Below the pieces are notes generated by a model. That model made no database searches and was not told the origin of the DNA. It saw nothing but the letters and a program-made list of their open reading frames with translations. A stretch of 64,000 nucleotides of DNA, from NCBI RefSeq assembly GCF_044324785.1, contig NZ_CP172127.1. One strand, 5' to 3'. The DNA is from Escherichia coli (GTDB lineage: Bacteria; Pseudomonadota; Gammaproteobacteria; Enterobacterales; Enterobacteriaceae). Numbering within the stretch: the first letter of the stretch is position 1; each line of letters starts with the position of its first letter. This document shows positions 3,638 to 8,639 of the stretch, in pieces. A program made the translations under genes and the position numbers.

Positions 3638-4051
3638 TCACGCAATTTTTCTGGCCATCAGATAGATGGCCGGTTCCTGCACAATTTCATCCAACAGATG
3701 AATGAATTGAATGCTACGCGCCTGCCACACAGACGTCGCGTCATCTGCCAGTGGCGCGAATGCCCGGGTCAACAGGGCGGTGTGGCTGGCGTCAATAACA
3801 ATCTCACCAAAGGTCATCACCCCCAGCATCTTACGTCGGGCTTGCTCCTCTTCGACCTGTGCAAGCCAATCATCGTATTCCGTCTGTGGGCAGCGGAAGG
3901 CGACATTCAAACAATCAATCACGCCAACGTGATGACCGATAGCCAACGAGTAATACATTACCTGGGAGCTGTGTTCCGGCATCTCGTCGCTACTGGCGAC
4001 AAACTTTTTTCGCAGCGTCCAGAAAACAATTTCCCCGCACGCCTCAGCCAT
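3638..4051 (-). CDS. hyfJ: Hydrogenase-4 component HyfJ (HycH-like maturation/assembly protein)
   Basis: 137 aa ORF matching E. coli HyfJ; overlaps the hyfI stop by 8 nt. Confidence 0.9.
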
Positions 4052-4802
4052 GTAACCCCCGGAGAACGCGAAAGAGTTGCTGAACGATACTATTGAGACG
4101 TGGATCGTCGGCTTCGCGCAACCAGGTGTTAACCCGATTTCCTGTAGGATCGTCGCTTAAATGGCGCAGGAGCCGATCGCAAATTTCTCGCCCCTGACGA
4201 TAGCCCGCCAGCCGCCTCGCTTCTCGCTCAATGGCGATACGCTGTGATGGCGGGATCTGCGGCCATAGCGGTTGCATGGTCACCCCGGTGGGATCGCGAT
4301 AATCCACAGCGTGAATCTTCTGTTGCAGCAAACCGAGCGCCACGGCGAAACCGTGAATGGTGGCGGCCGGTGTTGGCGGGCAGCCGGGGATCCAAACATC
4401 AATGGGGACAATGGTGTCGCTGCCGCCCCAGACGCTGTAAAGATCGTGGAAAATACCGCCGCCGACACCGCACGCGCCGTAGGAAATACAGATTTTATGA
4501 TCGGGGGCAGACTCATATGCCCGAAGTGCAGGCATACGCATCGCCCGGGTGACTGCGCCAGTAAATAACAAAATATCGGCGTGACGCGGTGATGAAACAA
4601 CCTTAATGCCAAAACGTTCTGCGTCGAATACGGGTGTGATGGCGGCAAAAATTTCGATTTCGCAGGCGTTGCAGCCGCCGCAATCGACGCGATAAACGTA
4701 GGCCGAGCGACGGATATCCTGTAACAAATGCTGCTTCATCTTTTGCGTTTGCTCGTCCAGCGTGATGGGCTGGCTGACATATTGCGTAAGCACTGGACTC
4801 AT
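4044..4802 (-). CDS. hyfI: Hydrogenase-4 small subunit HyfI (NuoB/HycG-like)
   Basis: 252 aa; Cys-rich N-terminal cluster-binding region ([10 protein letters not shown]...GACGVGGG...GCPP) typical of NuoB-type subunits. Confidence 0.93.
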
Positions 4803-5344
4803 AGCTGCTCCTTAGCCACCAGCGGTACATCTGTATCGTCGTTGATCAGCGTCGCGCGTTGTTTGCACTCCGGGCAGACGCTCGCTTGCGCCCATAACAT
4901 TTCGCGGTTTTGTGGCGCATTTTGTTGCTGTGCCAACAATTCAGCAGCCAGTGCGACGGTTTTTTGCGGGGCAAACGGGCGTTCGCAACGGCTGCAACGT
5001 TGTAGATGAAACGTCGCGCGGGTATAGAGATCGGCTTTATTGGTGACGGTCAGTTCAAAGTTATTGGTAAGCTGAATGGCTCTGGTCGGGCACACTTCTT
5101 CACAACGTCCGCAGTAAATACAACGCCCCAGATAGAGCTGCCAGGTGCGCGTATTTTGCTGGTCGTCGGTCTGGATAGTCAGCGCGTTTGCCGGACAAGC
5201 ACAGGCGCAGGCACCGCAGGCAATACATTGGCTGGGCATCAGGTCCGGTTTCCCGCGAAAGCCTGGGCTGACCTCCAGTGGCGCGAAGGGATATTTCACC
5301 GTCGCGGTTCCGGCGCGCATAATAGTTTTCAGTAACTTCAGCAT
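4799..5344 (-). CDS. hyfH: Hydrogenase-4 ferredoxin-type subunit HyfH (2x[4Fe-4S])
   Basis: 181 aa; two CxxCxxCxxxCP motifs ([24 protein letters not shown]). Confidence 0.93.
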
Positions 5345-5353
5345 CTTCTGTCC

Positions 5354-7069
5354 TTACTTCAGCGGCGAACGGTTACGATCAATGCCGTAGCGTTCGATCT
5401 CTTTATACGGCACGGTTTTTGACTGGCGCTTGCGCACATCAACCAGCGTCACACGGTCGGTACAGGAGTAGCAGGGATCAAGGCTACCGATAATTAGCGG
5501 TGCGTCAGAAACGGTATTGCCGCGCAGCATGTAACGCAGCACTGGCCAGTTGGCGTAGGTGGCGGCACGACAGCGCCAGCGGAACAATTTTTGGTTATCA
5601 CCGAGCATGCTCCAGTGCACGTCTTCACCACGTGGCGCTTCAACAAAGCCCAGCGCGAATGCGTGAGGTTTATAGCTAAAGCCTTCGGTCAGCAGTGGGG
5701 TATCTGGCATGTTGTCGAGGGCAAATTCCAGCATTGCCAGCGAATCAAACGTCTCTTTGACACGGACCATCACGCGGGAGAAGACATCGCCGCCGGTAAA
5801 GGTAAACAGCGTTTTTGGAATATTGCCGTAGTCGGCGTAGGGGTGAGCAAAGCGCAAATCACGGGCAAAACCACTGCCGCGGATCAGCGGCCCTACGGGG
5901 CTATAATCACGGGCGATTTGTCGGTCGAGAATGCCAATGCCCTGAGTGCGTTGTTCCATATTCGGCGTGGCAAGCAGCATCTCTACCAGCTCCGACACGT
6001 CGGCGCGCATCTCGCGCACTAGTTTCAGCGTTTGCAGACGTTGCTCTTTGAGAATATCGCGGCGAACACCACCAATCAGATTCAGACCGTAGGTTTTACG
6101 CGACCCGGTCAGCAATTCCGCCATCGTCATCGACTTTTCCCGCACGCGGAAAAATTGCATAAAGCCGGTATCAAAACCAACAAAATGGCAGGAGAGGCCA
6201 AGGTTGAGCAAATGACTATGCAGCCGTTCGACTTCCAGCAGAATCGAGCGAATAGTATGCGCTCGTTGCGGCACTTCAATCCCCAGTGCATTTTCAACCG
6301 AGTTGGTATAGGCCACACTGTGGGCAAAACCGCAAATCCCACACACGCGGTCGGATAAGAAGGTCACTTCGTTGTAGCCCATCCGCGTTTCTGCCAGTTT
6401 CTCCATGCCGCGATGGACATAAAACAGGCGGTAATCAGCATCGACAATTTGCTCGCCATCCACAAACAAGCGGAAGTGACCTGGTTCATCGGAGGTGATA
6501 TGCAGCGGGCCGACAGGGATCACCCGCGCATCGCTGTTGCCCTCGTTGATAAACGGATACGTTTCGGTATCAGTCGTCGGTTCTGGGCGCAGTCGATAAT
6601 CCATCGCGTCTTTGCGCAGCGGATGCATATCTTCCGGCCAGTCATCGGGCAACACCAGCCGACGCTGATCCGGCAGGCCAACCGGAATCAGCCCGTACAT
6701 ATCGCGAATTTCTCGCTCGCCCCAGACCGCGGCAGGGACGCGCGGTGTGACTGACGGAAACTCCCGACTGTCGGCATCGACCAGTGCCTTCACCACGATC
6801 CAGCATTTTTCGGCCCCTTCCATAGAAAGGGCATAATAAACCGCGTAATGACCGTTAAGTGTCCGCTCGTCGTTGCCAAACAGGACTGGAAGCCAGCCAT
6901 CATGTTGATAATAAAGATAATGCACAACGTCAGGCAGCAGATTGATTTTCACCGTAATGGTGACCTGTTCAGGCGTTTGTCGCTCTTCATCCAGCACCGC
7001 GCCGGGGAACTGCGTTTTCAGGGCGGCGAGAATCGCTTCGCCACGATTTGACGATGAATTAACGTTCAC
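5354..7069 (-). CDS. hyfG: Hydrogenase-4 large [NiFe] subunit HyfG (HycE/NuoCD-like); start codon uncertain
   Basis: ORF track gives 586 aa from the ATG at 7114; a GTG at 7067-7069 preceded by GGAG (7 nt spacer) is the better-supported start; C-terminal ...DPCYSCTDR is a NiFe-ligand motif. Confidence 0.88.
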
Positions 7070-8639
7070 TGTGTTTCTCCGAAACAGATGCGGTGCCTGA
7101 AGGCAAAAAATCATGCCAGGTGCTACGTTGTGCAGGCAGGTCGTGCGTCCCTGAGAGGACTATAGTGGAAGCGCTTGCCAGGATCCTGATGACAGGTTGT
7201 GGAATATGCGTTCCCATCGCCAGCATCATGACCAGCAGAATCACCATTGGCGAGGTGGTCAACCAGCCAAGTTCACCCCGGTTAACGGCCTGCGGCGGTT
7301 TCGCCATTAACACCCGCGCAGCCATCCGTACCAGGCCCGCCAGCACCAGCGTTAACAGCAATAACAGCAGGACGATAAGCAGCAGATGATTACGCGCCAG
7401 TCCGGCGGTAACGGTCATAAATTCGCTAAGAAAAATGTTGAAGGGCGGCATCCCGGCCAGCGCCAGCGCACCGCCGCCAAACAACACGGCGGTAAATGGC
7501 ATGATTTTGAGCATCCCACAGACGACGTTGAGATCGCGCGTGCCGTACTTGAGCAGTACATTGCCGGAACCGCAGAACAACAGCGTTTTTGCCAGACTGT
7601 GGTTTAAGGTGTGCAGCAGCGCGGCAAAAATTCCCAGCGGCCCGCCAATGCCTAACGCCACCGCGACCAGTCCCATGTTCTCCACGCTGGAGTACGCCAG
7701 CAGACGCTTAATGTCCCGCTGTACCAGAATGAAAAATGCCGCCACGGCAACCGACAACATGCCGAAGATGAGCAACAACCGGTTGGGGAAATCGCTGCCG
7801 ATGGCCTGGCAAATAATGATGTAATAGCGAATAAGCACCAACAGCGCGCAGTTCAGCAATACGGCGGAGAGCAGGGCGCTGACCGGACTCGGCGCTTCAC
7901 TGTGAGCATCTGGCAGCCAGGCATGCATGGGGAATAGCCCGGTTTTAGTGCCAAAGCCAATTAGCACAAACACAAAGGCCAACAGCATTAATGTTGGGTC
8001 AAGCAAGGACGATTGCTTAAGAACCTCGCTCCAGAATATCGCCATTTCTGCCTGCGGCATAACGCTGGCGGCGTTGGCGTATACCAGCACGGTACCGAAC
8101 AGACCAAAAGCGACACCAACAGTACAAATAATGATGTACTTCCATGCAGCTTCCAGCGATGAACGCTGACCGTAAATGCCTACCAGAAACGCCGAGCTTA
8201 AGGTGGTGGCTTCGATTGCCGCCCACATCACAATCAGGTTATTGCTGGTAACAACCAGCAGCATGGTGAACAAAAACAGATGGAAGAAACCGTAGTAATC
8301 GCACAGCGTAACGGGTGAAAGCTCGCCGTGTGCCACTTCATGACGCATGTAGCCAATCGAGTAAACACCGGTGAGAAAGCCAATCACACCAAGAATGGCG
8401 AGGAACAAACCGCCCAGACCATCAATGTGAAGCCACAGTCCCGCAGCGAATATTTCTCCCGCATCAGCGGCAGTTTGGACCACCCACAGTGCCAGAATCA
8501 GCAGCAGTGTGATCCCTAAGCCATGTAGTACTGTCACCGTACGAGTCGCAGAGTGTCCCCGTTTCCGGCAGGCAAAACAGAGCAGCGAAAAAAGCAGCGG
8601 CGTGAGCAGGAGTAAAGCGAACATCACAAAATAACTCAT
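7059..8639 (-). CDS. hyfF: Hydrogenase-4 membrane subunit HyfF (NuoN/antiporter-like)
   Basis: 526 aa polytopic membrane ORF matching E. coli HyfF. Confidence 0.92.

Follow-up and report, generated by a model that had tools for sequence, protein, structure and literature searches.

The question raised by this locus is where translation of hyfG begins, and why the product differs in length from that of the Escherichia coli reference strain. The window (the whole stretch of DNA analysed, 64,000 nucleotides) holds a longest hyfG frame of 586 aa, located at 5354..7114 on the minus strand and opened by an ATG at 7114-7112. The reading best supported, with a probability of about 0.92, is that hyfG is translated from a GTG at 7069-7067 to give a protein of 571 aa, and that the 555-aa length of the K-12 protein reflects an internal 48-bp deletion. 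Features of the hyfF/hyfG junction are as follows.

5354..7069, minus strand: best-supported hyfG coding sequence, 571 aa from the GTG, and its stop codon (open reading frame and translation, RefSeq, Pfam, HycE alignment)
7059..8639, minus strand: hyfF coding sequence, 526 aa, stop codon TAA at 7061-7059 (K-12 hyfF has equal length and equal overlap)
7067..7069, minus strand: GTG initiation codon of hyfG (RefSeq annotation and conservation in other genera)
7077..7080, minus strand: Shine-Dalgarno sequence GGAG, 7 nt 5' of the GTG and within the hyfF coding sequence (sequence reading)
7112..7114, minus strand: upstream in-frame ATG, start of the longest open reading frame (586 aa), judged unused
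7019..7021, minus strand: CTG, in frame as codon 17 from the GTG, an internal Leu17 codon of HyfG and no start

The gene belongs to the hyf rather than the hyc operon, with hyfF immediately upstream and hyfH and hyfI downstream (open reading frames 4799..5344 and 4044..4802); RefSeq annotates the same gene order at the near-identical locus of AR_0077. HyfG is the large (catalytic) subunit of hydrogenase-4, a fusion of NuoC-like 30-kDa and NuoD-like 49-kDa domains that match PF00329 (85.3 bits) and PF00346 (170.3 bits) far over the gathering cut-offs, and PF00374 also matches. All four sequence features of a group 4a [NiFe]-hydrogenase large subunit of the HycE/HyfG type are present. The Ni-binding RxCGxCxxxH motif (R241, C243, G244, I245, C246, G247, H250) and the DPCxxCxxR motif (D531 P532 C533 Y534 S535 C536 T537 D538 R539) are invariant in 52 sequences, and the 32 residues past R539 align with the HycE assembly peptide, which is predicted to be cleavable. 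HycE of hydrogenase-3 (formate hydrogenlyase-1; PDB 7Z0S/7Z0T chain E) has the same NuoC-NuoD fusion, Ni-cysteine motifs and C-terminal assembly peptide. However, it is a paralogue encoded in another operon, with hycD rather than hyfF upstream and an ATG start. HyfG residues 7-571 align with HycE 4-581 (E=2e-291 against 7z0s_E), and the N-terminus that begins at the GTG is only 3 residues longer than that of HycE.

GTG is annotated as the hyfG start in K-12 MG1655 and, without exception, in the 17 other RefSeq genomes examined. The K-12 (555 aa) and AR_0077 (571 aa) genes both begin at this codon with an 11-nt hyfF overlap, and O157:H7 and 15 further RefSeq genomes likewise start there. The junction DNA itself is equal at 150 of 151 aligned bases between the window and K-12, with no difference from the ATG to the CTG inclusive; the single base at which K-12 and AR_0077 depart from the window sits 5' of the ATG. 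Across 73 hyf-type loci from other genera, the sole in-frame start with a Shine-Dalgarno sequence is the homologous GTG (68 loci) or an ATG in its place (5 loci). A core of (A)GGAG or related form is found in 73/73, with a 7-nt spacer in 57, and no second upstream start with a Shine-Dalgarno sequence occurs in any of these loci. In the junction alignment of orthologues, GGAG...GTGA is the sole conserved island, in which the GTGA and both Shine-Dalgarno G's are invariant. The window shows what is expected of Shine-Dalgarno-led initiation: anti-Shine-Dalgarno complementarity 5-9 nt 5' of the start (GGAG with a 7-nt spacer), a start and Shine-Dalgarno sequence kept in all 73 loci, and no conserved coding signal upstream. 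The published numbering of HyfG, in which a His tag was placed between Gly-85 and Ala-86, also agrees with the GTG start.

The original prediction had chosen this GTG rather than the longer frame opened by the ATG, citing the GGAG 7 nt before it and a hyfF overlap of only 11 nt. The preference was right, as both RefSeq annotation and the 73 loci agree with it, and the coordinates are confirmed. Conservation upstream of the GTG, which would have counted against the call, was looked for and none was found, and alignment of the N-terminus with K-12 HyfG and with HycE fits the GTG start in both cases. GGAG is a modest Shine-Dalgarno sequence of 4 nt. As a motif alone, GGAG-N7-GTG occurs in the window no more often than by chance (7 observed, 6.3 expected), and about 1.4 in-frame ATG, GTG or TTG codons are expected by chance in an open stretch of 30 codons. 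What goes beyond chance, by sequence comparison, is the position at a gene junction together with conservation of the GGAG...GTG block across the 73 hyf loci of other genera. Searches of the literature yielded no N-terminal peptide of HyfG from any organism, nor any ribosome-profiling or mutational data on it. The start call rests on comparative and sequence evidence because the hyf operon is poorly expressed in K-12, and from that evidence we infer both initiation at the GTG in vivo and coupling to hyfF translation. On the same comparative grounds the start-codon question is an ordinary one that is already settled, since current RefSeq annotation uses the GTG and the comparison across genera concurs. 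The choice of start is itself of little consequence, and the corrected cause of the length difference is the useful part.

Two alternatives involve the ATG at 7114-7112. According to the first, both starts are used, with most of the protein made from the GTG and a minor isoform, extended at the N-terminus, from the ATG. Nothing specific speaks for this, beyond an open frame, a strong initiation codon and the passage of hyfF-translating ribosomes over the ATG in another frame, and it appears very improbable. Initiation within an actively translated gene at a site with no Shine-Dalgarno sequence is inefficient, and the absent conservation speaks against a function for the isoform, which also faces every objection to the ATG as sole start. 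That second alternative, slightly less probable again, has hyfG beginning at the ATG to give the 586-aa protein, with a 15-residue extension and a 56-nt hyfF overlap. It has in its favor the longest frame, the ATG codon itself and a few older public annotations, with the 586-aa form on 9 contigs (e.g. EFF01158.1, WP_001309644.1) and a 570-aa deletion form on 20; the GTG forms, by comparison, are each found on at least 1000 contigs. The original prediction correctly described this frame as lacking a Shine-Dalgarno sequence, as confirmed on the minus strand, where there is no GGAG, GAGG or AGGA 4-12 nt upstream. It had placed the ATG 55 nt inside hyfF; the position holds, and the count is 56 nt when the stop codon is included, a matter of counting convention. 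The ATG and extension are conserved in 0/73 hyf-type loci of other genera. In 34 of the 73 a stop codon lies fewer than 15 codons 5' of the start, making an extension that long impossible; in the closest relatives, Klebsiella indica and Citrobacter sp. NCU1, a stop precedes the GTG by 11 codons, and in certain species a stop directly precedes the hyfG start. Residues 1-16 of the 586-aa form fall outside every protein-family match, and HycE has no counterpart of the extension. NCBIfam has no HyfG-specific model, and the profile check of the N-terminus showed only the 15-residue extension to be uncovered. The ATG start was rejected for its missing Shine-Dalgarno sequence, missing conservation, stops in relatives and lack of profile coverage. 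Read in the hyfF frame, the ATG is part of the His-Asp codons CAT GAT, and it would be a chance in-frame codon within hyfF.

With the GTG as the start, the 555-aa length of the reference product remains to be accounted for. That length, given as approximate in the original prediction, is correct for K-12 MG1655 (b2487, NP_416982.1), but the proposal that the reference starts later, at the codon that is CTG here (7021-7019), through a start-codon mutation or annotation choice, can be dismissed almost entirely: it has only the arithmetic in its favor (571 - 16 = 555), and direct comparison with NC_000913.3 rules it out, as the codon is CTG in K-12 too, the K-12 CDS is annotated from the same GTG, 11 nt inside hyfF, and the 16 residues missing from the K-12 protein are internal (386-401) rather than N-terminal. 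The CTG codon moreover belongs to a conserved N-terminal helix, which can be aligned with HycE. Its Leu17 aligns with HycE Leu14, is Leu or Val in orthologues within a conserved (Y/C)LAA(L/V) stretch, and falls inside a predicted helix (residues 11-20, pLDDT ~95 in the AlphaFold2 model). The 555 and 571 aa lengths differ because of an internal 48-bp in-frame deletion in K-12, which removes exactly 16 residues. Of the two explanations originally offered, a strain difference is therefore upheld, but as a deletion elsewhere in the gene, and a choice of start is not. Comparison of the 555- and 571-aa forms could prompt a wrong re-annotation of the hyfG start, when the real difference is the internal deletion.

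5867..5914, minus strand: 48-bp segment encoding HyfG residues 386-401, absent from the K-12 reference (sequence comparison)
5846..5848, minus strand: codon GCT, Ala408, where all other sequences examined have Asp (RFDHPY); a private substitution

The 48-bp segment, retained in the window, is bounded by 10-bp direct repeats (GCCCGTGATT) at 5914-5905 and 5866-5857, and the deletion lies between them. The segment is present in 80/80 orthologous loci, and the 52 sequences compared are all identical at 10 of the 16 residues. The deletion would have formed between the two repeats and would be the derived state, with the window carrying the ancestral full-length allele. Of 4294 complete E. coli genomes with hyfG, at least 2113 (at least 49%) have the deletion, B strains and O111/O26-type STEC among them. 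The open-access full-text literature searched contains no mention of the deletion, although an earlier description is possible.

Residues 386-401 include an invariant SPVGPxxRxSG motif. The part of it associated with the proton-pathway Arg, GPxxRxSG, is present in the window at residues 393-400, with Arg397 encoded by CGC at 5881-5879 (minus strand), and is missing from the K-12 allele. Arg397 aligns with HycE Arg395 (after subtraction of a 12-residue His-tag insert), a residue placed in a conserved proton pathway (Steinhilper 2022). The deleted motif is invariant in HyfG, in HycE, in archaeal MbhL and as far afield as NDUFS2 of complex I. The PF00346 score falls from 170.3 bits for full-length HyfG to 129.6 bits for the K-12 form. 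AlphaFold2 gives a mean pLDDT of 68.6 for the full-length protein and 65.8 for K-12 HyfG, both moderate values from a shallow alignment; near the deletion junction, local pLDDT is ~76 in the full-length model and ~60 in the K-12 model, which also lacks one short helix, a difference too weak to show misfolding. The dN/dS ratio is 0.30 in deletion alleles versus 0.045, and polymorphic codons are nonsynonymous and synonymous in a ratio of 8:7 in deletion alleles versus 10:55 (Fisher p = 0.004), a contrast suggestive of relaxed selection on the deletion alleles but drawn from 4 distinct, non-independent sequences and confounded by the nonsynonymous excess seen among very close relatives.

Promoter swaps and C-terminal engineering have failed to activate K-12 hydrogenase-4, and 'additional, unknown' problems have been invoked. 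The deletion may help explain this failure. It strikes a universally conserved motif and a proposed proton-pathway Arg in the strain used for most hydrogenase-4 work. We tentatively suggest, at somewhat less than even odds, that the gene for the 555-aa HyfG, found in K-12 and in at least 49% of complete E. coli genomes with hyfG, is a naturally occurring allele that is crippled or has lost its function, that this is one of the 'additional, unknown' problems keeping K-12 hydrogenase-4 inactive, and that strains with the 571-aa protein (O157:H7, and the window apart from D408A) are those where the enzyme can work. If the deletion is inactivating, it would give a simple and testable account of the long-standing 'silent hyf' problem, and E. 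coli formate hydrogenlyase-2 would best be studied in strains with the full-length allele.

The last 11 nt of hyfF (7059-7069) are shared with the 5' end of hyfG, and the hyfF stop lies 8 nt 3' of the first base of the GTG. In translationally coupled pairs, such as those at trp operon junctions, the second gene starts inside the closing codons of the first, and this geometry is found here, with the hyfG start within the last hyfF codons. As in coupled overlapping pairs generally, both the start and the Shine-Dalgarno sequence are within the upstream coding sequence. The commonest overlaps of operon genes are 1 or 4 nt, and in contrast to these the hyfF/hyfG overlap is longer, at 11 nt, although still the tight layout typical of translationally coupled operon genes. 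A ribosome finishing hyfF, or one newly binding, would use the GGAG at 7080-7077 inside hyfF. A search for RNA structure that would enforce coupling by sequestering the hyfG Shine-Dalgarno sequence and start found a fold no better than that of shuffled sequence (z = -0.19), and no occluding structure points to obligatory coupling of hyfG to hyfF. Other hyf junctions in K-12 are just as close, with overlaps of 4 nt at hyfH/hyfI and 8 nt at hyfI/hyfJ. In other genera hyfF and hyfG most commonly overlap by 4 nt (GTGA) or are separated by 1-2 nt; in 59/73 loci the junction ranges from a 3-nt gap to a 26-nt overlap, and apparent hyfF overlaps of more than 40 nt in some distant loci are probably frame-tracking errors of the script that computed stop positions.

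Functional FHL-2 systems are known in Pectobacterium atrosepticum and Trabulsiella guamensis. P. atrosepticum itself was absent from the loci retrieved, and the junction was read in P. peruviense, P. betavasculorum and T. guamensis. In all three, as in E. coli, the hyfG start is a GTG that follows AGGAG or GGAG after 6-7 nt and overlaps hyfF briefly, and segment 386-401 is intact in their HyfG. Their N-termini are 6-7 residues longer (MSYQ.../MTYDN...), and E. coli hyfG has 4 codons fewer just after the start than the closest genera.

Within E. coli, the full-length 571-aa proteins WP_001102312.1 (AR_0077, 118UI) and WP_001102329.1 (O157:H7 TW14359) share the start, length and segment 386-401 of the window. 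HyfG in the window is a single residue (D408A) from WP_001102312.1, which is annotated from the GTG in AR_0077. A 45-nt query across the D408A variant matched 0 of 5426 complete E. coli genomes, and at least 90% of 52 orthologues keep Asp at this position. Scanning the entire window for Rfam families and tRNAs gave no hit. The K-12 gene (UniProt HYFG_ECOLI) occupies the same place in the operon, with the same GTG, GGAG and 11-nt overlap, and its product is 99% identical to that of the window over aligned residues. Apart from the lack of residues 386-401, K-12 HyfG differs by Q50, S168 and I321, and by D408 where the window has A408; K-12 I321 replaces a Thr that is invariant in 51 orthologues.

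The hyfG start lies at the hyfF-hyfG junction, where the original prediction had all coordinates right (residues are numbered in full-length, 571-aa HyfG counted from the GTG):

7059..8639, minus strand: hyfF, an open reading frame of 526 aa, with its stop TAA at 7061-7059.
5354..7114, minus strand: longest frame of hyfG, 586 aa, beginning with ATG at 7114-7112.
7080-7077, minus strand: GGAG Shine-Dalgarno (SD) sequence inside hyfF, with a 7-nt spacer to the GTG.
7069-7067, minus strand: GTG, with an 11-nt overlap with hyfF.
7021-7019, minus strand: CTG, in frame, 16 codons past the GTG (Leu17).

The comparative evidence points to the GTG as the start of hyfG, with a probability of roughly 90%. 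The original prediction had preferred this codon, and it is both the annotated and the best-supported start; the junction is an ordinary one that was correctly and carefully read. The motif GGAG-N7-GTG is unremarkable alone (7 occurrences in the whole window vs 6.3 expected), and an in-frame ATG, GTG or TTG within 30 open upstream codons is also expected by chance. RefSeq starts hyfG at this GTG in AR_0077 (99.8% identity with the window over the junction), K-12, O157:H7 TW14359 and 15 further genomes, with products of 555 or 571 aa. These two forms are each found on at least 1000 contigs in public protein collections, and ATG-started forms of 570 and 586 aa on 20 and 9 contigs, respectively, mostly from older annotations. 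The ambiguity is present in databases, but largely settled.

An annotation-independent scan of one genome per species gave 80 loci, and in 73 of them hyfG directly follows hyfF. Each of these 73 has just one in-frame start preceded by an SD, the homologous codon (68 GTG, 5 ATG), with the SD core AGGAG (46), GGAG (23), AGGAGG (2) or GAGG (2) and a 7-nt spacer in 57; none has another such start further upstream. Fewer than 15 upstream codons are open in 34 of the 73 loci, making an extension of E. coli length impossible there. GGAG...GTGA is the only conserved island in the junction alignment. Conservation upstream of the GTG, which the original prediction had named as evidence against this start, does not reach beyond an Arg-Arg encoded by the SD itself, the hyfG-frame sequence upstream of the island being otherwise unconserved. 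HyfG 7-571 aligns with residues 4-581 of HycE, the hydrogenase-3 counterpart (PDB 7Z0S chain E), and thus the GTG N-terminus is merely three residues longer than that of HycE. A published His tag between Gly-85 and Ala-86 also agrees with numbering from the GTG.

The ATG at 7114 opens the longest frame, but is disfavoured: there is no SD-like core within 4-12 nt upstream, no Pfam or NCBIfam profile covers the 15-residue extension, and the upstream sequence is unconserved in loci of other species. The CTG at 7021 is ruled out, as Leu17 lies within a predicted helix (residues 11-20, pLDDT ~95), aligns with HycE Leu14, is Leu or Val in orthologues, and is encoded by the same CTG in K-12.

The CTG had been proposed from a reference length of about 555 aa. 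The length is correct for K-12 HyfG (NP_416982.1), but the start deduced from it is wrong, since K-12 begins at the same GTG and 16 residues are missing internally. The hyfG gene of NC_000913.3 (b2487) occupies locus positions 4488..6155 and starts 11 nt inside hyfF, whose last base is 4498. Of 151 nt around the junction, K-12 and the window share all but one, which lies 26 nt upstream of the ATG; they agree at the ATG, GGAG, GTG and CTG, and thus the reference uses the same GTG. In the protein alignment, residues 386-401 are absent from K-12 HyfG. The length difference is an internal deletion polymorphism and not a matter of a CTG start.

The hyfF stop lies 8 nt beyond the first base of the hyfG GTG, and further hyf junctions in K-12 are as tight (overlaps of 4 and 8 nt, gaps of 4-16 nt). 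This geometry fits translational coupling, in which hyfG translation would be coupled to that of hyfF, or at least efficiently re-initiated, via the SD inside hyfF; no significant RNA structure occluding the hyfG start site was found, and coupling is thus inferred from geometry. Across genera, the commonest states of the junction are a 4-nt overlap (GTGA, 18 loci) and a 1-2 nt gap (27 loci). Right after GTG-AAC (window 7055-7069, minus strand), E. coli is 12 nt shorter than Klebsiella indica, Citrobacter and Kosakonia (loci L003, L004, L005 and L007, around 2486-2510). The missing nucleotides are the codons Y-L-D-S (Tyr-Leu-Asp/Ala-Ser), whose loss changes MNYLDSVN... to MNVN... and the overlap from 23 nt to 11 nt, leaving HyfG shorter at its N-terminus and HyfF at its C-terminus.

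The internal deletion was located by DNA comparison with K-12:

5867-5914, minus strand: 48-bp segment encoding HyfG 386-401, intact in the window and missing from K-12 (locus L002, 5597-5689 compared).
5914-5905 and 5866-5857: 10-bp direct repeats GCCCGTGATT in the window.

The K-12 gap is a clean 48 bp, in frame and flanked by two copies of GCCCGTGATT, the signature of a putative repeat-mediated deletion. The 16-residue segment is kept in 80/80 orthologous loci, where HyfG is 567-598 aa long and 555 aa is an outlier; thus, the deletion is the derived state. The window carries the ancestral, intact hyfG allele, while the laboratory reference is missing a core catalytic-subunit motif. Ten of the 16 lost residues are invariant among 52 sequences (A386, R387, D388, S390, V392, G393, P394, R397, S399 and G400), and the invariant motif SPVGPxxRxSG is taken out. 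GPxxRxSG...DxR...PY also occurs in P. furiosus MbhL and in structurally solved 49-kDa subunits of mitochondrial and bacterial complex I, with GG instead of GP in T. thermophilus Nqo4. In 7z0s_E, the residue aligned with HyfG Arg397 is at chain position 407; minus a 12-residue tag insert, this is native HycE Arg395. Together with His284 and Glu437, Arg395 forms a putative proton pathway leading to the [NiFe]-site canopy residues, a pathway conserved among FHL, MBH, soluble hydrogenases and complex I (Steinhilper et al. 2022, PMC9474812). The PF00346 score is ~40 bits lower with the deletion.

Among the 4294 complete E. coli genomes with a hyfF-hyfG junction, a 40-nt deletion-junction probe matches 2113, including K-12, B strains and O111-type strains, so that at least 2113 carry the deletion. 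The intact 48-nt segment matches 1703, including O157:H7, and 478 are matched by neither probe. With window 6800-7400 as query, 1132 of 5426 complete genomes lack any such junction, in line with the published finding that the F/G/B2 lineage has lost the hyf operon (PMC6896753).

The deletion alleles are close to one another, with 9 genomes yielding 4 distinct sequences and pS at 0.008, and their nearest full-length relative is that of YY76-1, 5-10 nt apart. Thr321 (LLTG[SA]RKTYG) is invariant in 51 orthologues and the window, and is Ile in K-12. As T321I is common to 9/9 sampled deletion alleles and full-length YY76-1, the substitution appears to predate the deletion. Protein-changing polymorphic codons (8/15 in deletion vs 10/65 in full-length alleles, Fisher p = 0.004) and dN/dS (0.30 vs 0.045) fit relaxed constraint on deletion alleles, confounded by clade recency and small sample; in the deletion alleles, changes at invariant positions include P196L, G197S and G517D. 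Annotated hyfI frameshifts occur in 4/8 sampled deletion genomes (L084, L085, L089, L090), and internal stops in hyfF or hyfG in 2/8 sampled full-length genomes (YY76-1 and L095). Erosion thus extends beyond deletion strains, hyf genes being often broken in E. coli. In strain OW1E2 (H17), hyfG is labelled 'NADH-quinone oxidoreductase subunit C', probably due to truncation.

The deletion may have a bearing on why K-12 hydrogenase-4 is 'silent'. The difficulty has been put down to weak expression, the absence of an accessory gene and uncertainty over assay conditions (Finney et al. 2019, PMC7384014), and the K-12 hyf promoter has been swapped for Phyc or PT5, with the HycE assembly peptide fused onto HyfG (Finney et al. 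2020). No mention of an internal HyfG deletion was found in a full-text search of open-access papers, which did not cover Andrews 1997 (the original hyf paper) and Self 2004. ΔhyfG phenotypes are repeatedly reported in BW25113 (e.g. PMC10758574), arguing against a completely dead deletion allele. The deletion, a by-product of the start question, is worth a bench test.

One further difference was seen in the window hyfG:

5846-5848, minus strand: GCT, HyfG codon 408, Ala; Asp (RFDHPY) in K-12, in AR_0077 and in almost all of the 80 orthologues.

A 45-nt probe across this variant has no matches in 5426 complete E. coli genomes, and thus D408A is private to the window sequence. No Rfam family reaches gathering score in the 64-kb window, nor does ARAGORN find a tRNA or tmRNA gene there. 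The best complete E. coli genome over window 1-25000, strain N3, has merely 99.0% identity, indicating that complete genomes include no close representative of the window lineage; despite this ceiling over 25 kb, the hyfFG junction is 99.8% identical to AR_0077.
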